A stretch of 7,904 bases of DNA from a virus. Taxonomy: Duplodnaviria; Heunggongvirae; Uroviricota; Caudoviricetes. Every line of letters begins with the position of its first letter. Position 1 is the first letter of the stretch. The position numbers were made by a program, and so were the translations under genes. The notes below the pieces were generated by a model. The model was not told where the DNA came from and did no database searches. It saw nothing but the letters and a program-made list of their open reading frames with translations. Positions 1-7,904 of this stretch are shown here, piece by piece. The stretch is taken from the IMG/VR virus record IMGVR_UViG_2531839127_000025; one strand, written 5' to 3'.

Positions 1-87
1 GTGCTGGATTACATTGACGCGGTGACGGCAATAGATACCAGCACCGCGCCTGATATTATTTGGCCTGTATTCCCTGAGACTGATTAA
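1..87 (+). CDS. Tail-fibre assembly protein (Tfa), C-terminal end only; 5' end lies outside the window
   Basis: Frame 1 from position 1 reads VLDYIDAVTAIDTSTAPDIIWPVFPETD with a TAA stop at 85-87. The DTSTAPDI-WP tail resembles the conserved C-terminus of lambda/e14-type Tfa proteins as I recall them. Position immediately before an invertase fits a tail-fibre/Tfa module. Confidence 0.65.
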   Translation: MLDYIDAVTAIDTSTAPDIIWPVFPETD

Positions 88-316
88 CCTCAATCAGTAT
101 TGGTTCGCCTTTCTCATTAATTGTTAGCTCCATGCCCTGAGGAATTTCTGTCATAGTAAAAAACCAGTTGTCCTCCGGTAATTCAATAGCCCCGGTCACG
201 TCATGAAGACCGGGGATTACTTCAGTCAAAGTAACTGGATTAAACAGGCGCACAATAAACCCTCCATGAAAAAGCATTTGATGATGGTCTGCCGTCGTAC
301 ATCTGGCAGCGGGCAT
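56..316 (-). CDS. Small 86-aa ORF in the silent cassette, downstream of the alternative fibre segment; possible non-canonical fibre chaperone, function unknown
   Basis: Minus-strand ORF with ATG at 316-314 and an in-frame TAA five codons upstream, so it cannot be longer. It converges on and overlaps the + strand Tfa end (56-87), as in convergent Sv-U / U'-S'v cassette layouts. No recognisable Tfa C-terminal motif and no strong Shine-Dalgarno. Confidence 0.35.
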   Translation of the reverse strand: MPAARCTTADHHQMLFHGGFIVRLFNPVTLTEVIPGLHDVTGAIELPEDNWFFTMTEIPQGMELTINEKGEPILIEVNQSQGIQAK

Positions 317-595
317 AAAAGCCGGTATTTGTTACCTGATCATCCACGATCATTGAAACGTGAACATTATTAGGTGTGCTCTCGTAATCCGTTCTTATTC
401 TTTCTGCGATACTGATAAAACGTGAAAGTTTAGGCAGTGCAATTGGGTAAACGACTTTAGCCAGTCCATTATCATTAGATCCACCGGTTCCAAATACTTC
501 TATTGCACCATCTGACCAGCGTACCCATGCACCATTGGCATTAGCTCCTCGCTGAATGACATATCTGGCTTCTCCCAAACCAACGTTTATGAAAA
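240..595 (-). CDS. Alternative (silent-orientation) tail-fibre C-terminal variable segment; start-less, would be fused to the constant fibre N-terminus after inversion
   Basis: Minus-strand frame is open from the crossover site down to a stop at 237-239 (ORF track 240..623; the ATGs at 623-618 lie outside the invertible segment and are probably not used). The frame runs straight through the 26-bp crossover site, encoding ...FINVGLGEA.... Gly/Asn/Ser/Trp-rich composition is typical of fibre tips. Assignment is by architecture, not by recognised homology. Confidence 0.45.
570..595. other. Serine-invertase crossover site (gix/cix/hix-like 26-bp imperfect palindrome)
   Basis: TTCTCCCAAACC-AA-CGTTTATGAAAA: two 12-bp half sites in inverted orientation around a central AA dinucleotide, following the TTnTCnnAAACC..GGTTTnnGAnAA pattern of hix/gix/cix sites. 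Lies 55 bp upstream of the invertase ATG and inside the fibre-segment reading frame. Confidence 0.7.
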
Positions 596-649
596 TGCAG
601 AAATAACGAGCAAATGGCATCATTCCTGCTTTTGTCAGAGGGATCCACT

Positions 650-1243
650 ATGCTTATTGGCTATGTACGCGTGTCAACAAATGACCAGAACACGGAATTG
701 CAGCGTAACGCGCTGGAGTGTGCAGGATGTGAGCTGATTTTTGAGGACAAAATCAGCGGCACGAAGTCCGACAGGCCGGGACTGAAAAAACTGCTCAGGA
801 CATTATCGGAGGGGGATACACTGGTAGTCTGGAAGCTGGACCGGCTGGGGCGTAGTATGCGGCATCTGGTCATTCTGGTTGAGGAGCTGCGCGAACGCGG
901 CATTAATTTTCGCAGCCTGACGGATGCCATTGATACCAGCACGCCGATGGGGCGTTTTTTCTTTCATGTGATGGGTGCCCTGGCTGAAATGGAGCGAGAA
1001 CTCATTGTCGAGCGGACACGCGCAGGACTGGAAGCGGCCAGAGCCAAAGGTCGTATTGGTGGCAGACGACAGAAACTCACCGCGAGTGAGTGGGAGCAGG
1101 CCGGGCGTTTGCTGGCTGCAGGGGAGCCACGTCAACGCGTGGCACTGATTTTTGATATTGGTCTGTCCACGCTCTATAAAAAATTTCCCGCCTCAGTGAC
1201 AAAAAATAAATTGTGTCATCCCTTAGCCAACCGGGACAAATAG
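650..1243 (+). CDS. Serine-recombinase DNA invertase (Pin/Gin/Cin/Hin family)
   Basis: Protein from ATG 650 begins MLIGYVRVSTNDQNTELQRNAL..., with the family's catalytic-serine N-terminus, the GDTLVVWKLDRLGRS and MGRFFFHVMGALAEMERELI(V)ERT blocks, and a C-terminal HTH region (RVALIFDIGLSTLYKK). AGAGGGA Shine-Dalgarno 9-15 nt upstream. The in-frame ATG at 614 has no SD and adds a non-conserved leader. Confidence 0.92.
   Translation: MLIGYVRVSTNDQNTELQRNALECAGCELIFEDKISGTKSDRPGLKKLLRTLSEGDTLVVWKLDRLGRSMRHLVILVEELRERGINFRSLTDAIDTSTPMGRFFFHVMGALAEMERELIVERTRAGLEAARAKGRIGGRRQKLTASEWEQAGRLLAAGEPRQRVALIFDIGLSTLYKKFPASVTKNKLCHPLANRDK
1212..1240 (+). promoter_or_regulatory. Candidate late-promoter activator box (imperfect dyad TTGTGTC ... 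GACAAA) upstream of FI
   Basis: Imperfect inverted repeat roughly 60-90 bp upstream of the FI start, overlapping the 3' end of the invertase ORF. P2 late promoters carry a TGT-N12-ACA dyad for Ogr; the spacing here does not match that consensus, so this is tentative. Confidence 0.2.
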
Positions 1244-1302
1244 CCTGACATCTCCGGCACAACTGAAAATACCACTCACCCATTAACCACGGAGTTAAAC
1301 GG

Positions 1303-2493
1303 ATGAGTGACTATCATCACGGCGTGCAGGTGCTGGAGATTAACGACGGCCCCCGCGTCATTTCCACCGTATCCACTGCCATTGTCGGCATGGTCTGCAC
1401 GGCCAGCGATGCGGATGCGGAAACCTTCCCCCTCAATAAACCTGTGCTGATTACCAATGTGCAGAGCGCAATTGCAAAGGCCGGTAAAAAAGGCACGCTG
1501 GCGGCATCGTTGCAGGCCATCGCTGACCAGTCAAAACCGGTCACCGTTGTCGTGCGCGTGGAAGACGGCACCGGCGACGACGAAGAAACGAAACTCGCGC
1601 AGACCGTTTCCAATATCATCGGCACCACCGACGAAAACGGTCAGTACACCGGGCTAAAAGCCCTGCTGGCGGCGGAGTCGGTAACCGGTGTTAAACCGCG
1701 TATTCTCGGTGTGCCGGGGCTGGATACCAAAGAGGTGGCTGTTGCACTGGCATCCGTCTGTCAGAAGCTGCGCGCTTTCGGGTATATCAGCGCATGGGGC
1801 TGTAAAACCATTTCCGAGGTGAAAGCCTACCGCCAGAATTTCAGCCAGCGTGAGCTGATGGTCATCTGGCCGGATTTCCTCGCATGGGATACGGTCACCA
1901 GTACCACCGCCACCGCGTATGCCACCGCCCGTGCGCTGGGTCTGCGTGCCAAAATCGACCAGGAGCAGGGCTGGCATAAAACGCTGTCCAACGTCGGGGT
2001 GAACGGTGTTACCGGCATCAGCGCCTCTGTATTCTGGGATTTGCAGGAGTCCGGCACCGATGCTGACCTGCTTAACGAGTCAGGCGTCACAACGCTGATT
2101 CGCCGTGACGGTTTCCGCTTCTGGGGTAACCGTACCTGCTCTGATGACCCGCTGTTCCTCTTTGAAAACTACCCCCGCACCGCGCAGGTGCTGGCCGACA
2201 CGATGGCTGAGGCGCATATGTGGGCGGTGGACAAGCCTGTCACCGCAACGCTGATTCGCGACATCGTTGACGGCATCAATGCCAAATTCCGTGAGCTGAA
2301 AACAAACGGCTATATCGTGGATGCGACCTGCTGGTTCAGCGAAGAATCCAACGATGCGGAAACCCTCAAGGCCGGAAAACTGTATATCGACTACGACTAT
2401 ACACCGGTACCTCCTCTTGAAAACCTGACCCTGCGCCAGCGTATTACCGATAAATACCTGGCAAATCTGGTCACCTCGGTTAACAGCAATTAA
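1303..2493 (+). CDS. FI: Contractile tail sheath protein (P2 gpFI-like)
   Basis: 396-aa ORF with GGAG Shine-Dalgarno 8 nt upstream. The MSDYHHGVQVLEINDG... N-terminus and overall sequence match my recollection of P2 FI. Followed immediately by the tube gene. Confidence 0.93.
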   Translation: MSDYHHGVQVLEINDGPRVISTVSTAIVGMVCTASDADAETFPLNKPVLITNVQSAIAKAGKKGTLAASLQAIADQSKPVTVVVRVEDGTGDDEETKLAQTVSNIIGTTDENGQYTGLKALLAAESVTGVKPRILGVPGLDTKEVAVALASVCQKLRAFGYISAWGCKTISEVKAYRQNFSQRELMVIWPDFLAWDTVTSTTATAYATARALGLRAKIDQEQGWHKTLSNVGVNGVTGISASVFWDLQESGTDADLLNESGVTTLIRRDGFRFWGNRTCSDDPLFLFENYPRTAQVLADTMAEAHMWAVDKPVTATLIRDIVDGINAKFRELKTNGYIVDATCWFSEESNDAETLKAGKLYIDYDYTPVPPLENLTLRQRITDKYLANLVTSVNSN

Positions 2494-2505
2494 GGAGCCT
2501 GACCG

Positions 2506-3024
2506 ATGGCAATGCCGCGCAAACTCAAGTTAATGAACGTCTTTCTGAACGGCTACAGCTATCAGGGCGTTGCAAAGTCCGTCACGCTGCCAAAACTGAC
2601 CCGTAAGCTCGAAAACTATCGCGGTGCGGGGATGAACGGCAGCGCACCGGTAGACCTCGGCCTTGATGACGATGCGCTGTCAATGGAGTGGTCGCTCGGT
2701 GGCTTCCCGGATTCGGTTATCTGGGAGCTTTACGCCGCAACCGGTGTGGATGCCGTGCCGATTCGTTTTGCAGGCTCTTACCAGCGCGACGATACCGGCG
2801 AAACGGTGGCCGTCGAAGTGGTCATGCGTGGACGTCAGAAAGAAATCGACACCGGCGAGGGTAAACAGGGAGAAGACACCGAGTCGAAAATCTCCGTGGT
2901 CTGCACCTATTTCCGGCTGACGATGGACGGCAAGGAGCTGGTCGAAATCGACACCATCAACATGATTGAGAAGGTGAACGGCGTCGACCGGCTGGAGCAA
3001 CACCGCCGAAATATCGGCCTGTGA
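2506..3024 (+). CDS. FII: Tail tube protein (P2 gpFII-like)
   Basis: 172-aa ORF with AAGGAG Shine-Dalgarno overlapping the FI stop. Size and position (sheath-tube pair) are typical of Myoviridae; sequence resembles P2 FII. Confidence 0.92.
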   Translation: MAMPRKLKLMNVFLNGYSYQGVAKSVTLPKLTRKLENYRGAGMNGSAPVDLGLDDDALSMEWSLGGFPDSVIWELYAATGVDAVPIRFAGSYQRDDTGETVAVEVVMRGRQKEIDTGEGKQGEDTESKISVVCTYFRLTMDGKELVEIDTINMIEKVNGVDRLEQHRRNIGL

Positions 3025-3030
3025 TTTTCA

Positions 3031-3051
3031 TCCGGTCAGCCTGGCTGACCG
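3031..3051 (+). other. Perfect 9-bp stem / 3-nt loop hairpin between FII and E
   Basis: CCGGTCAGC-CTG-GCTGACCGG lies between the FII stop (3022-3024) and the E Shine-Dalgarno. No U-tract follows, so it is not a classical intrinsic terminator. Confidence 0.5.
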
Positions 3052-3080
3052 GTTAACCCTGATTCAGAAGTGAGAAAACC

Positions 3081-3356
3081 ATGAACAAAGAAAATGTGAT
3101 TACCCTGGACAATCCGGTCAAGCGTGGTGAGCAGGTTATCGAACAGGTCACGCTGATGAAACCCAATGCCGGGACGCTGCGCGGTGTCAGTCTGGCTGCG
3201 GTCGCAAACTCCGAAGTCGATGCACTGATTAAGGTGCTGCCGCGCATGACGGCACCGATGCTGACCGAGCAGGAAGTCGCCGCGCTGGAACTGCCTGACC
3301 TTGTGGCGCTGGCCGGTAAGGTGGTCGGTTTTTTGTCGCCGAACTCGGTGCAGTAA
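3081..3356 (+). CDS. E: Tail assembly chaperone (P2 gpE-like), zero-frame product
   Basis: 91-aa ORF ending ...VVGFLSPNSVQ*. Sits directly upstream of the tape-measure gene, the conserved chaperone position. Contains the slippery heptamer near its 3' end. Confidence 0.9.
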   Translation: MNKENVITLDNPVKRGEQVIEQVTLMKPNAGTLRGVSLAAVANSEVDALIKVLPRMTAPMLTEQEVAALELPDLVALAGKVVGFLSPNSVQ

Positions 3357-3508
3357 CGTTCCCGAAAAATCTGTCGGTCGATGAGCTGATGGCGGATGTG
3401 GCAGTGATATTTCACTGGCCGCCATCAGAACTGTATCCCATGAGTCTGACCGAACTCATCACATGGCGCGAAAAGGCGCTCCGGCGAAGCGGAAACACGA
3501 ATGAGTAA
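3081..3508 (+). CDS. E': Tail assembly chaperone frameshift product (P2 gpE+E'-like), made by a programmed -1 shift at 3329-3335
   Basis: Slippery heptamer T TTT TTG at 3329-3335 in X XXY YYZ phasing relative to the E frame. The -1 frame is open from there to a TAA at 3506-3508, encoding ...VAELGAVTFPKNLSVDELMADVAVIFHWPPSELYPMSLTELITWREKALRRSGNTNE, and overlaps the T start codon at 3501. Confidence 0.8.
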
Positions 3509-5948
3509 CAATGTAAAATTACAGGTATTGCTCAGGGCTGTTGACCAGGCATCCCGCCCGTTTAAATCCATCCGCACAGCGAGCAAATCGCTGTCGGGGG
3601 ATATCCGGGAAACACAAAAATCACTGCGCGAGCTGAACGGTCACGCATCCCGTATTGAGGGATTTCGCAAGACCAGCGCACAGCTCGCCGGGACTGGTCA
3701 TGCACTTGAAAAGGCACGGCAGGAGGCCGAAGCCCTTGCCACACAGTTTAAAAACACTGAACGTCCGACCCGTGCTCAGGCGAAAGTGCTGGAATCCGCA
3801 AAGCGTGCGGCGGAGGACTTACAGGCGAAATATAACCGCCTGACGGATTCCGTTAAGCGCCAGCAGCGGGAACTGGCCGCTGTGGGAATTAATACCCGCA
3901 ATCTTGCACATGATGAGCAGGGACTGAAAAACCGTATCAGTGAAACCACCGCACAGCTTAACCGGCAGCGTGACGCGCTGGCGCGTGTCAGTGCGCAACA
4001 GGCAAAACTTAATGCAGTAAAACAGCGTTATCAGGCCGGAAAGGAACTGGCCGGAAATATGGCCTCGGTGGGCGCTGCCGGTGTGGGGATTGCGGCGGCG
4101 GGAACGATGGCCGGAGTTAAGTTGCTGATGCCCGGTTATGAGTTTGCGCAGAAAAACTCAGAATTGCAGGCCGTGCTCGGAGTGGCAAAAGACTCCGCCG
4201 AAATGACCGCACTACGCAAACAGGCGCGCCAGCTCGGCGACAATACCGCCGCCTCGGCGGATGATGCGGCCGGTGCACAGATAATCATCGCGAAAGCGGG
4301 TGGGGATGTTGATGCCATTCAGGCGGCAACGCCGGTCACGCTGAATATGGCGCTGGCGAACCGCCGCACGATGGAAGAAAACGCCGCCCTGCTGATGGGG
4401 ATGAAATCCGCCTTTCAGCTTTCAAACGATAAGGTCGCTCATATCGGGGATGTTCTCTCCATGACGATGAACAAAACCGCCGCCGATTTTGACGGCATGA
4501 GTGATGCGCTGACCTATGCCGCACCTGTGGCAAAAAATGCCGGTGTCAGCATTGAAGAAACCGCCGCAATGGTCGGGGCGCTGCATGATGCAAAAATCAC
4601 AGGCTCAATGGCGGGGACGGGAAGCCGTGCCGTGTTAAGCCGCCTGCAGGCACCGACGGGAAAAGCATGGGATGCACTCAAAGAGCTTGGAGTGAAAACC
4701 TCAGACAGCAAAGGAAACACCCGGCCAATATTTACCATTCTGAAAGAAATGCAGGCCAGTTTTGAGAAAAACCGGCTCGGTACTGCCCAGCAGGCTGAAT
4801 ACATGAAAACTATTTTCGGGGAGGAGGCCAGCTCAGCCGCCGCCGTGCTGATGACTGCCGCCTCAACCGGAAAGCTGGACAAACTGACCGCTGCGTTTAA
4901 AGCCTCAGACGGGAAGACCGCCGAGCTGGTAAATATCATGCAGGATAACCTCGGCGGTGACTTTAAGGAGTTTCAGTCCGCTTATGAGGCGGTGGGGACA
5001 GACCTGTTTGACCAGCAGGAAGGCGCACTGCGTAAGCTCACTCAGACGGCCACAAAGTATGTGTTAAAACTCGACGGCTGGATCCAGAAAAACAAATCAC
5101 TGGCGTCAACCATCGGCCTCATTGTCGGTGGCGCGCTGGCGCTTATTGGCATCATCGGTGCCATTGGTCTTGTAGCCTGGCCGGTTATCACCGGCATCAA
5201 TGCCATTATCGCGGCAGCAGGCGCAATGGGGGCAATCTTCATGACGGTTGGCAGTGCTGTTATGACGGCCATCGGGGCGATTAGCTGGCCGGTTGTGGCC
5301 GTGGTGGCCGCCATTGTCTCCGGGGCGTTGCTTATCCGTAAATACTGGGAGCCTGTCAGCGCATTCTTTGGCGGTGTGGTTGAAGGGCTGAAAACGGCAT
5401 TTGCGCCGGTGGGGGAACTTTTCACGCCACTTAAGCCGGTGTTTGACTGGCTGGGCGAAAAGTTACAGGCCGCGTGGCAGTGGTTTACAAACCTGATTGC
5501 CCCGGTTAAAGCCACACAGGACACCATGAACCGTTGCCGTGACACGGGCGTCATGTTCGGGCAGGCGCTGGCTGACGCGCTGATGCTGCCGCTTAATGCG
5601 TTCAACAAACTGCGCAGCGGTATTGACTGGGTACTGGAAAAACTCGGTGTTATCAACAAAGAGTCAGACACACTTGACCAGACCGCCGCAAGGACTCATG
5701 CCGCCACGTATGGCACCGGTGGTTACATTCCGGCGACCAGCTCTTATGCAGGCTATCAGGCTTATCAGCCGGTCACGGCACCGGCTGGCCGCTCTTATGT
5801 GGACCAGAGTAAAAACGAATATCACATCAGCCTGACGGGTGGTACTGCGCCGGGGACACAGCTTGACCGCCAGTTACAGGATGCGCTCGAAAAATACGAG
5901 CGGGATAAACGTGCGCGCGCCCGTGCCAGCATGATGCATGACGGTTAA
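3501..5948 (+). CDS. T: Tail tape measure protein (P2 gpT-like)
   Basis: 815-aa ORF directly after the E/E' chaperone pair. N-terminal region is rich in charged, coiled-coil-like residues; a long Gly/Ala/Ile hydrophobic segment is encoded around 5098-5340. Confidence 0.93.
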   Translation: MSNNVKLQVLLRAVDQASRPFKSIRTASKSLSGDIRETQKSLRELNGHASRIEGFRKTSAQLAGTGHALEKARQEAEALATQFKNTERPTRAQAKVLESAKRAAEDLQAKYNRLTDSVKRQQRELAAVGINTRNLAHDEQGLKNRISETTAQLNRQRDALARVSAQQAKLNAVKQRYQAGKELAGNMASVGAAGVGIAAAGTMAGVKLLMPGYEFAQKNSELQAVLGVAKDSAEMTALRKQARQLGDNTAASADDAAGAQIIIAKAGGDVDAIQAATPVTLNMALANRRTMEENAALLMGMKSAFQLSNDKVAHIGDVLSMTMNKTAADFDGMSDALTYAAPVAKNAGVSIEETAAMVGALHDAKITGSMAGTGSRAVLSRLQAPTGKAWDALKELGVKTSDSKGNTRPIFTILKEMQASFEKNRLGTAQQAEYMKTIFGEEASSAAAVLMTAASTGKLDKLTAAFKASDGKTAELVNIMQDNLGGDFKEFQSAYEAVGTDLFDQQEGALRKLTQTATKYVLKLDGWIQKNKSLASTIGLIVGGALALIGIIGAIGLVAWPVITGINAIIAAAGAMGAIFMTVGSAVMTAIGAISWPVVAVVAAIVSGALLIRKYWEPVSAFFGGVVEGLKTAFAPVGELFTPLKPVFDWLGEKLQAAWQWFTNLIAPVKATQDTMNRCRDTGVMFGQALADALMLPLNAFNKLRSGIDWVLEKLGVINKESDTLDQTAARTHAATYGTGGYIPATSSYAGYQAYQPVTAPAGRSYVDQSKNEYHISLTGGTAPGTQLDRQLQDALEKYERDKRARARASMMHDG

Positions 5949-5962
5949 GGAGGTGACGAAAA

Positions 5963-6442
5963 ATGATGCTCGCGTTAGGTATGTTTGTTTTTATGCGCCA
6001 GACGCTGCCACACCAGACCATGCAGCGTGAATCAGATTATCGCTGGCCGTCAAATTCCCGTATCGGCAAACGGGATGCCTTTCAGTTTCTCGGTGTGGGT
6101 GAGGAAAACATCACGCTTGCCGGTGTGCTTTATCCTGAACTGACCGGCGGAAAGCTGACGATGACCACGCTCAGACTGATGGCAGAGGAAGGCCGGGCGT
6201 GGCCGTTGCTGGATGGCACCGGCATGATTTACGGCATGTATGTCATCAGCAGGGTGAGTGAAACAGGGAGTATTTTCTTTGCAGACGGCACACCCCGGAA
6301 AATTGATTTTACGCTGTCGCTCACCCGCGTTGATGAATCACTGGCCGCGCTTTATGGCGATATCGGTAAACAGGCGGAATCGCTCATCGGTAAGGCTTGC
6401 AGTATGGCGACTAAATTCACGGGTATGACGGGGGCGGGATAA
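5963..6442 (+). CDS. U: Tail protein U (P2 gpU-like)
   Basis: 159-aa ORF with AAGGAGGTG Shine-Dalgarno upstream. Its stop overlaps the D start (TAATG). Conserved position after the tape measure. Confidence 0.88.
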   Translation: MMLALGMFVFMRQTLPHQTMQRESDYRWPSNSRIGKRDAFQFLGVGEENITLAGVLYPELTGGKLTMTTLRLMAEEGRAWPLLDGTGMIYGMYVISRVSETGSIFFADGTPRKIDFTLSLTRVDESLAALYGDIGKQAESLIGKACSMATKFTGMTGAG

Positions 6443-7605
6443 TGCTGGATGCACTGACATTTGATGCAGGCAGTACGCTGACGCCGGATTACATGCTGAT
6501 GCTCGACAGCAGGGATATTACCGGCAATATCAGCGACCGTCTGATGAGTATGACCCTGACGGATAACCGGGGTTTTGAGGCTGACCAGCTTGATATTGAA
6601 CTGAACGATGCCGACGGGCAGGTCGGGCTGCCGGTTCGTGGCGCTGTCCTGACGGTGTATATCGGCTGGAAAGGTTTTGCCCTGGTATGCAAAGGGAAAT
6701 TCACCGTTGATGAGGTAGAACACCGGGGCGCGCCGGATGTGGTCACCATCCGCGCCCGGAGTGCAGATTTTCGCGGGACGCTCAATTCCCGCCGTGAAGG
6801 CTCCTGGCATGACACCACGCTCGGTGCGATTGTTGAGGCGATAGCCTCCCGTAACAGGCTGGAAGCCAGTGTCGCGCCGTCACTGGCCGGAATTAAAATC
6901 CCGCACATCGACCAGTCGCAGGAGTCTGATGCAAAATTCCTGACCCGCCTTGCTGAACGCAACGGCGGTGAGGTGTCGGTAAAAATGGGAAAACTGTTGT
7001 TTCTCAAAGCGGGGCAGGGGGTGACGGCCAGCGGTAAAAAAATCCCGCAGGTCACCATCACCCGCAGCGACGGCGACCGTCATCATTTTGCGATTGCTGA
7101 TCGTGGAGCCTACACCGGCGTAACGGCAAAGTGGTTACACACCAAAGACCCGAAGCCGCAAAAGCAGAAGGTAAAACTGAAACGCAAAAAGAAAGAGAAA
7201 CACCTGCGCGCACTGGAGCACCCGAAAGCAAAACCGGTCACGCAGAAGAAAGCGCCAAAAGTACCGGAAGCGCGCGAAGGTGAATACATGGCCGGTGAAG
7301 CTGACAACGTTTTTGCCCTGACCACGGTATATGCCACAAAAGCGCAGGCTATGCGCGCCGCTCAGGCGAAGTGGGACAAACTGCAACGGGGCGTTGCGGA
7401 GTTCTCCATCAGCCTGGCTACTGGTCGGGCAGATATTTACACGGAAACGCCGGTCAAAGTGTCAGGCTTTAAGCGCGTCATAGACGAGCAGGACTGGACA
7501 ATCACTAAGGTGACACATTTTCTGAATAATAGCGGCTTCACGACGTCCCTGGAGCTTGAGGTCAGGCTTTCTGATGTGGAGTACGAAACAGAAGATGATG
7601 AGTGA
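6442..7605 (+). CDS. D: Tail protein D (P2 gpD-like)
   Basis: 387-aa ORF translationally coupled to U. Contains a Lys-rich basic segment (KDPKPQKQKVKLKRKKKEKHLRALEHPKAKP...) encoded at about 7140-7270. Last gene of the F operon in P2 gene order. Confidence 0.88.
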   Translation: MLDALTFDAGSTLTPDYMLMLDSRDITGNISDRLMSMTLTDNRGFEADQLDIELNDADGQVGLPVRGAVLTVYIGWKGFALVCKGKFTVDEVEHRGAPDVVTIRARSADFRGTLNSRREGSWHDTTLGAIVEAIASRNRLEASVAPSLAGIKIPHIDQSQESDAKFLTRLAERNGGEVSVKMGKLLFLKAGQGVTASGKKIPQVTITRSDGDRHHFAIADRGAYTGVTAKWLHTKDPKPQKQKVKLKRKKKEKHLRALEHPKAKPVTQKKAPKVPEAREGEYMAGEADNVFALTTVYATKAQAMRAAQAKWDKLQRGVAEFSISLATGRADIYTETPVKVSGFKRVIDEQDWTITKVTHFLNNSGFTTSLELEVRLSDVEYETEDDE

Positions 7606-7609
7606 TGTT

Positions 7610-7685
7610 TTATTTTATCTATTTGTTTTGTAAGGATAAATTAACTAAAATGGCACCATCAACAAAACCGGAAGAGGTGCTCGCG
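7610..7685 (+). promoter_or_regulatory. AT-rich intergenic region likely holding the ogr promoter and ribosome-binding site
   Basis: AT-rich stretch between the D stop and the ogr ATG, with TTGTTT/TTGTAA and TAAATT/TAAAAT hexamers and a GGAAGAGGTG purine tract 6-15 nt before the ATG at 7686. Exact -35/-10 not assignable by eye. Confidence 0.3.
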
Positions 7686-7904
7686 ATGTTTCATTGTCCT
7701 TTATGCCAGCATGCCGCACATGCGCGTACAAGCCGCTATATCACTGACACGACAAAAGAGCGTTATCACCAGTGTCAGAACGTGAATTGCAGCGCCACGT
7801 TCATCACTTATGAGTCGGTACAGCGATATATCGTGAAGCCGGGAGAAGTCCACGCCGTAAGGCCGCACCCGTTGCCATCAGGGCAGCAAATTATGTGGAT
7901 GTAA
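7686..7904 (+). CDS. ogr: Late-gene transcriptional activator Ogr (Cys4 zinc-finger, Ogr/Delta family)
   Basis: 72-aa product MFHCPLCQHAAHARTSRYITDTTKERYHQCQNVNCSATF... with a CxxC-N22-CxxxxC zinc-finger arrangement, matching Ogr as I recall it. Follows gene D as in P2. The stop codon is the last three bases of the window. Confidence 0.9.
   Translation: MFHCPLCQHAAHARTSRYITDTTKERYHQCQNVNCSATFITYESVQRYIVKPGEVHAVRPHPLPSGQQIMWM

Follow-up and report, generated by a model that had tools for sequence, protein, structure and literature searches.

A 26-bp sequence resembling the crossover sites of site-specific DNA invertases lies directly upstream of an invertase gene in the 7,904-bp stretch of DNA analyzed here (the window), which raises the question of whether the tail-fibre genes to its left can be inverted and, if so, where the second crossover site is found and what the inversion exchanges. 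We find that the window very probably holds the right end of a two-state invertible tail-fibre segment, of the e14 P and Mu G kind, in a P2-like prophage of E. coli.

The 7.9-kb window spans the tail half of a Peduovirus (P2-like) prophage in E. coli. Downstream of the invertase gene, Pfam families identify the sheath gene FI (1303-2493, Phage_sheath_1), the tube gene FII (2506-3024, Phage_tube), U (5963-6442, P2_GpU), D (6442-7605, Phage_GPD) and ogr (from 7602, Ogr_Delta); E/E' lies after FII and before the tape-measure gene T (3501-5948), which matches its expected Pfam family. The P2 gene order H-G-(hotspot)-FI-FII-E/E'-T-U-D-ogr is preserved with P2-type families throughout, and the switch locus is positioned between gene G and the sheath gene FI. 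Upstream of this region, a sister contig (L003) carries the P2 capsid and terminase genes, GPL, the lysis genes, and R, S, V, W, J and I. These upstream capsid, terminase and lysis genes argue for a phage, and the tailocin that the earlier note had offered as an alternative is unlikely.

An exact look-up of the invertase protein returned several assemblies in which the prophage occupies one chromosomal position beside pflB/focA; the chromosomal sequence flanking the near-identical loci matches pflB/focA of E. coli at 100% identity. The sister set used below consists of near-identical E. coli assemblies of the P0304777.x series (contigs L003, L005, L007, L008 and L009), which differ by a few SNPs elsewhere and are near-clonal, though not proven clonal. 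The best E. coli relative is a further contig, L001, which is 97% identical across the window and is laid out as H, tfa, two minus-strand ORFs, invertase and sheath.

The invertase gene (650-1243, plus strand) encodes a 197-aa serine DNA invertase of the Gin/Pin/Cin/Hin family with matches to Resolvase (PF00239, E 3e-52) and HTH_7 (PF02796, E 3e-12). The protein has the features of the invertase subclass, namely small size, an N-terminal resolvase catalytic domain and a C-terminal HTH. Over residues 1-182 it matches the Mu Gin structures 3UJ3 and 4M6F at an E value of about 1e-94 and about 80% identity, and over the first 180 codons identity is 88% to PinE and 81% to Gin; the stretches MLIGYVRVSTNDQ and VVWKLDRLGRS are identical in the invertase and Gin. 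Position 9 is the catalytic serine here and alanine in the 3UJ3 chain. NCBIfam yielded no specific model for the invertase, just sub-threshold matches to other serine recombinases. An inactivating change to the catalytic serine would have spoken against the switch proposed in the earlier note; the gene is full length and the serine is unchanged.

A fixed spacer (596-649) separates the invertase gene from the crossover site. It contains the invertase ribosome-binding site GAGGG (637-641), 7 nt before the ATG at 650, and from its position we prefer the start at 650 over the upstream ATG at 614. Two minus-strand ATGs, at 623 and 620, also fall in the spacer. A simple scan for an invertase promoter found no σ70-like match.

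The right-hand crossover site (570-595, without strand) reads TTCTCCCAAACC AA CGTTTATGAAAA, with the 2-bp core AA at 582-583, and occurs once in the window; none of 200 shuffles gave a chance match to the 26-mer. All 26 positions are identical to the site beside pinE in the e14 element of K-12 (L010, 4606-4631), and all 26 are likewise identical to the site of Peduovirus pro483. The site can also be aligned in register to the gix sites of Mu, whose positions coincide exactly with the annotated boundaries of the G segment, and 15 of the 16 bases of the e14 inverted repeat as published, CCTTCTCCCAAACCAA, match window 568-583 (PMC12529663). The gap between the site and the invertase ATG is 54 bp, equal to the gap in e14 and Mu; the spacing of 55 bp proposed from the sequence counts the ATG as the 55th nucleotide past the last base of the site. 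More generally, many Enterobacterales genera have a site with an AAACC-NN-(C/G)GTTT core 45-67 bp ahead of related invertase genes. The identity to the e14 site and the alignment with gix bear out the assignment of 570-595 as a crossover site.

The second site had been expected outside the window, as an inverted copy inside the tail-fibre gene upstream that would be found with 4-6 mismatches allowed. At three or fewer mismatches neither L001 nor the window showed a partner, and a generic search for inverted repeats missed it as well. With 5-6 mismatches allowed, the partner surfaced in L001, inverted and inside the tail-fibre gene H. This left site, TTCTCGCATACC TT GGTTTGGGAGAA, lies within H in L001, L003, L007 and pro483; it is also written TTCTCGCATACC TT GGTTTAGGAGAA and spans the H codons for YLGLGE. 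Its inner half and core are the reverse complement of the window's TTCTCCCAAACC AA, and the outer halves are unlike; the stringent search missed the partner because the outer half-sites differ. The two 26-bp sites are thus in inverted orientation, with cores AA and TT, and the window alone holds one of them. In near-identical sister contigs the left site begins 1,117 bp and ends 1,092 bp ahead of the first base of the window, and in L007 the left site is at 258-283 and the right site at 1944-1969 (window 570-595).

Comparison of the sister contigs reveals both orientations of the segment. Two of them, L007 and L009, are collinear with the window and differ from it by 6 and 4 mismatches, respectively, over 7,904 bp. 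For L003 and L005, the alignment of window 569-7904 is collinear at 99.95% identity and that of window 1-586 is reversed at 99.8%, and these two alignments overlap by 18 bp, within the site. L008 starts inside the segment and is collinear with L003, which places it in the flipped orientation. L007 equals L003 with a single clean inversion between the left and right sites: when we inverted L003 in silico at the 2-bp cores (1,688 bp), the product differed from L007 at 6 positions and from the window at 4. Every one of these mismatches falls outside the segment, and window 1-1243 was reproduced exactly. Both sites are carried on a single contig in each of L003, L005 and L007. Near-identical strains therefore carry the segment in opposite orientations; the breakpoints coincide exactly with the 2-bp cores, and the remaining sequence is at least 99.94% identical. 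Contig breaks were also considered as a sign of mixed orientation and rejected, as the breaks of L008 and L009 lie inside tfa genes, away from the sites. The tfa genes recur among prophages.

The invertible segment measures 1.69 kb, which settles the question of its size, and is wholly taken up by two cassettes. A search of L003 6500-10700 with the 14-nt inner half plus core, at three or fewer mismatches, found no third site. Two sites only, with two cassettes filling the 1.69 kb, indicate a two-state switch and no shufflon, and the multi-site shufflon that had been entertained for this locus is set aside. Among 5,426 complete E. coli genomes all four junction types are present; by counts that are approximate because they depend on the similarity of the constant parts, the small tip is silent in 70 genomes and expressed in 28, and the Collar tip is silent in 935 and expressed in 420.

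The inversion exchanges the 3' end of the fibre gene H. The first 280 residues of H, ending LLAYLGLGE, are identical and common to both states, and both fused reading frames are open. In the state of the window, H has 470 aa with a 190-aa Collar-domain tip, and a 201-aa Tfa is encoded next; the flipped state gives an H of 389 aa with a 109-aa tip and a 65-aa ORF after it. In sequence the two tips are unrelated. Phage relatives of the Collar tip number in the hundreds and include the side tail fibres of HK97 and HK106 (~54% identity). The 3' end of its tfa, the equivalent of P2 gene G in the currently expressed cassette, opens the window (1-87, plus strand; Caudo_TAP, E 2.5e-6), as the earlier note had recognized; the complete gene lies at 856-1461 in L007, and its 201-aa product matches phrog_105 ('tail fiber assembly') at E 1.7e-96. 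With the partner site in H, both orientations observed and both frames open, the proposed architecture of the Mu G, P1 C and e14 P type is upheld.

The currently unexpressed cassette occupies the minus strand to the left of the right-hand site. The alternative C-terminus of H (240-595, minus strand) is the 109-aa variable tip after the GLGE junction, and in L003, where the sister locus is flipped, H continues into it in frame. In the window, a minus-strand ORF (240-623) crosses the site, with the translation ...NVGLGEARYVIQ..., also given as ...FINVGLGEARYV... and containing NVGLGE. A silent minus-strand cassette at 56-595 with a frame running through the site had been noted from the sequence; the frame through the site stands, and the cassette is refined into two ORFs, the 109-aa tip and the 65-aa ORF. 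The tip matches the C-terminal end of phrog_2557, a virion-protein family (E 6e-22), and weakly Pfam Gp53-like_C (E 0.0033), with just three distant matches, all 'hypothetical', in 50,697 phage records.

The downstream partner of the small tip is a conserved 65-aa ORF (56-253, minus strand) that begins with a GTG start and MRLFNP. The identical protein is present on about 1,000 contigs, and its listed relatives come from Enterobacter, Salmonella, Citrobacter, Hafnia, Xenorhabdus and Erwinia (Enterobacterales). All 120 of these listed relatives, down to 59% identity, are 46-91 aa long, and the MRLFNP start and 15 columns are invariant among them. We rejected a recently truncated Tfa as an explanation, as the listed relatives across genera are all equally short. 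The ORF matches just the N-terminal half of phrog_5400 (function unknown); it has no match in Pfam or NCBIfam and no similarity to the 201-aa Tfa, NCBIfam returned nothing for the cassette proteins, and a single-sequence structure model reached a pLDDT of 50.8, too low to use. The Collar tip is thus followed by a clear Tfa and the small tip by a 65-aa ORF without Tfa signature. The inversion had been predicted to swap the fibre C-terminus together with its partner protein: the tip swap is confirmed, and the silent partner is not a recognizable Tfa. A role for the 65-aa ORF as chaperone of the small tip is a guess from position only.

Recombination by invertases of the Hin type depends on a 65-bp enhancer whose two ends each carry a Fis site and which normally lies about 100 bp away from one of the crossover sites; the enzymes cut both crossover sites through phosphoserine links, and the strands are exchanged by subunit rotation (PMC3798978). 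We searched for such an enhancer in the invertase gene as conservation of synonymous positions over 25 invertase genes with 73-88% protein identity. Conservation peaks twice, at about nt 662-697 and 710-760 (0.6-0.68, compared with 0.41 gene-wide), with near-invariant blocks at 671-693 and 721-759. Third positions are better conserved in codons 5-38 than in the remainder of the gene (Mann-Whitney p 1e-4). The best 34-codon block begins at codon 1, and translation-start effects may contribute to it. Conserved Fis-like G-N13-C 15-mers, one for each near-invariant block, are located at 671-685 and 720-734, their centres 49 bp apart, and the stretch between them corresponds to the AT-rich inter-Fis segment described for hin. 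Positions 671-734, within the invertase gene, are thus a candidate recombinational enhancer that is likely bound by Fis, and their geometry is consistent with that of Hin.

By analogy to Hin and Gin, the adjacent serine invertase would bind the two inverted 26-bp sites (570-595 and the site inside H), which would synapse on the Fis-bound enhancer at about 671-734. The enzyme would then cut the 2-bp cores (AA/TT), rotate the strands and flip the 1.69 kb. This would leave the first 280 residues of H and the late promoter of the fibre operon in place and exchange the C-terminal tip of H and the gene after it. Since the promoter of the fibre operon is upstream and fixed, the swap would concern coding 3' ends and involve no promoter flip. 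Virions released from a lysogen population would bear one of two receptor-binding tips. In this scheme the adjacent, cis-encoded invertase is the probable catalyst, Fis dependence is presumed from the related systems, and the exchange of tips would be expected to change the receptor and with it the host range.

Three other accounts of these observations bear on whether the switch is active, which enzyme drives it and what it is for. The differences in orientation could be assembly artefacts or old, fixed rearrangements of a switch that is now inactive, and L007, L008 and L009 do begin inside or near the segment, as would be expected if assemblers struggle in this region. This we regard as highly improbable, given that L003, L005 and L007 cross both sites in single contigs, that the shared inverted repeat is just 15-18 bp and thus far below read length, and that the breakpoints coincide with the 2-bp cores in otherwise nearly identical sequence beside an intact invertase; loci of the same kind, moreover, switch measurably in culture (PMC4272514; PMC12529663). 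An account with more in its favor, although we still think it rather unlikely, is that inversion is carried out mainly by a Pin-family invertase encoded elsewhere, such as pinE, pinQ or pinR of cryptic prophages, leaving the adjacent gene dispensable or minor. The e14 P segment can be inverted in trans by PinQ, an enzyme of prophage Qin whose effect is stronger than that of PinE (PMC12529663), and enzymes that act on e14 should act on the identical site here. Against this, the adjacent invertase is intact and conserved together with the site at the fixed 54-bp spacing across genera, and its gene carries the enhancer-like conservation. Catalysis in trans would alter which enzyme acts and not the nature of the element.

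The remaining account concerns the benefit to the lysogen, which may not be, or not only be, host range: the ORF of the silent tip might be expressed and protect the cell, for example by receptor masking. In both orientations a frame that starts at the fixed minus-strand ATG (623/620) stays open across the site and into whichever tip is silent, giving 127 aa in the window and 207 aa in L003, and this arrangement is that of stfE in e14, whose chimeric product StfE2 is reported to block T2 adsorption (PMC12529663). On the minus strand, however, a simple scan found no promoter-like site, and the AGGA directly against the minus-strand ATG is poorly spaced; the prophage has capsid, terminase, lysis and tail genes, and host-range switching explains enough. 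We therefore hold protection of the lysogen to be improbable. A broader proposal, that the 109-aa tip and its 65-aa partner form an uncharacterized minimal pair of receptor-binding tip and chaperone, and/or that the silent ORF acts as a receptor-masking defence of the lysogen, is hardly more probable, and we retain a two-state switch of fibre tips as the preferred reading.

A two-state switch of this kind would act as a bet-hedging device, in which a lysogen population releases phage with either of two tips. Typing or host-range engineering of E. coli P2-like prophages must account for the orientation of the segment, and the small tip with its 65-aa partner, found in roughly a hundred complete E. 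coli genomes, is a reasonable target for receptor identification. The locus also illustrates that programmed DNA inversion is recognizable from one site and its neighboring genes.

Among the characterized inversion systems, Hin/hix of Salmonella flagellar phase variation shares the invertase subclass and the 26-bp site, and the enhancer-like signal here is placed equivalently to the 65-bp Fis-bound enhancer in the 5' part of the hin gene. The two differ in what is moved: Hin flips a promoter and hin lies inside the segment, whereas the present invertase is encoded outside the segment and the swap concerns coding 3' ends. The G segment of Mu with Gin, and also P1 C with Cin, has the same architecture, the 54-bp spacing (Mu) and, in Mu G, a crossover inside the fibre gene that fuses constant and variable parts as found here. 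The gix sites and the present site have 17 of 26 positions in common, with the core GA in gix and AA here; the Mu G segment is about 3 kb, and the Mu tips are unrelated to those described here.

The closest relative is the e14 P segment with its invertase PinE in E. coli K-12, reportedly the subject of work by Plasterk and van de Putte in 1985 and by Mehta et al. in 2004 (cited in PMC4272514). The invertase-proximal 26-bp site and the 54-bp spacing are identical, the layout of fibre, tfa, convergent tfa-like gene, fibre tip and invertase is shared, the invertase is 88% identical over 180 codons, and one e14-type element (L094) bears the very same cassette pair next to pinE. The differences lie in the setting and at the edges: e14 is a lambdoid-type remnant whereas the present element lies in a P2-like myovirus prophage, the segment is 1.69 kb here versus 1,797 bp in e14, the outer half of the left site is unlike that of e14, and the 197-aa invertase has a C-terminal tail unlike that of PinE, the similarity to pinE stopping near nt 1040-1050. 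Inversion of e14 by PinE has been measured (PMC12529663).

Loci at the same genomic position, between G and FI, occur in other P2-like prophages (EPEC, Z/fun and pro483), which belong to the same phage family. In pro483 the sites are identical and the invertase region is 94% identical, and both pro483 and the contigs L002, L004 and L006 carry other tips and Tfa genes than the present locus. In the P2-like prophages of EPEC E2348/69, two-state and shufflon inversion was detected by whole-genome sequencing (Goldberg et al. 2014, PMC4272514), and one of those loci is a three-site shufflon where the present locus has two sites. Invertases with inverted neighboring genes have also been noted at the P2 Z/fun hotspot (bioRxiv 10.1101/2024.10.15.618418). 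Switches of this kind in P2-like prophages are thus already published, and the locus described here belongs to a system that is already known.

The cassette pair and crossover site of the window are also present in Escherichia coli STEC1575 (3197-5704 of its contig, L094), where they adjoin the invertase gene pinE; the element there is of the e14 type and has baseplate genes resembling those of Mu. This stretch is ~94% identical in nucleotide sequence to window 1-1035. The invertible module as a whole is thus exchanged among prophage families that are unrelated. In three prophages (L002, L004 and L006, ~8174-9945), an identical 197-aa invertase protein is encoded with a cassette pair that differs from that of the window (H of 373 aa with a Tfa of 142 aa vs. 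a Tfa of 197 aa with a 165-aa tip). The L004 prophage occupies a different chromosomal position, adjoining a cation-efflux gene and pfk.

DNA similarity between e14 pinE and the window's invertase gene ends near nt 1040-1050, while similarity to P2-like phages continues to 1300, and the window's invertase has a tail longer by 13 residues (window 1038-1243). Because similarity to pinE stops where that to P2-like phages persists, the helix-turn-helix (HTH) end and the longer tail are assigned to a lineage specific to P2. This tail extends into the short spacer preceding the sheath gene, the expected location of the late promoter that would drive the F operon in P2.

Comparison of the 109-aa alternative fibre tip (window 240-569, minus strand) with 50,697 phage records returned only three matches, all distant (32-36% identity), from Escherichia phage S164 (one record) and Xanthomonas phage DIBBI (two records). 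Despite this scarcity in phage records, the tip is found in ~100 complete E. coli genomes. It is always followed by a gene of a strictly conserved family of about 60-65 aa (window 56-253, minus strand), which ranges across Enterobacterales, including Xenorhabdus and Erwinia, and whose MRLFNP start is invariant among the relatives listed. Neither a Tfa domain nor an annotated function was found in this family.

Among L024 (1-66), L026 (1-76) and L016 (1-78), Kluyvera draft contigs begin within the crossover site that lies upstream of the invertase, and one Citrobacter draft contig ends no more than ~80 bp from the invertase start. Crossover sites seem to act as break points for assemblers; such breaks could be a cheap flag for invertible segments, a flag that does not in itself prove mixed orientation.

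Next after the tail assembly protein E ORF (window 3081-3356) comes a GpE-family ORF that overlaps it and is annotated as 51 or 39 aa in sister loci, and the gene arrangement of window 3081-3510 matches the usual E/E+E' programmed-frameshift layout of P2. Whichever tip is silent, an ORF of 127 or 207 aa, depending on orientation, begins at an ATG that lies outside the invertible segment and stays fixed (minus strand; window 596-623, or 9947-9971 in the flipped sister contig L003), and it remains open through the crossover site and into that tip. In e14, stfE shows a parallel arrangement, and its chimeric product reportedly blocks T2 adsorption (PMC12529663).
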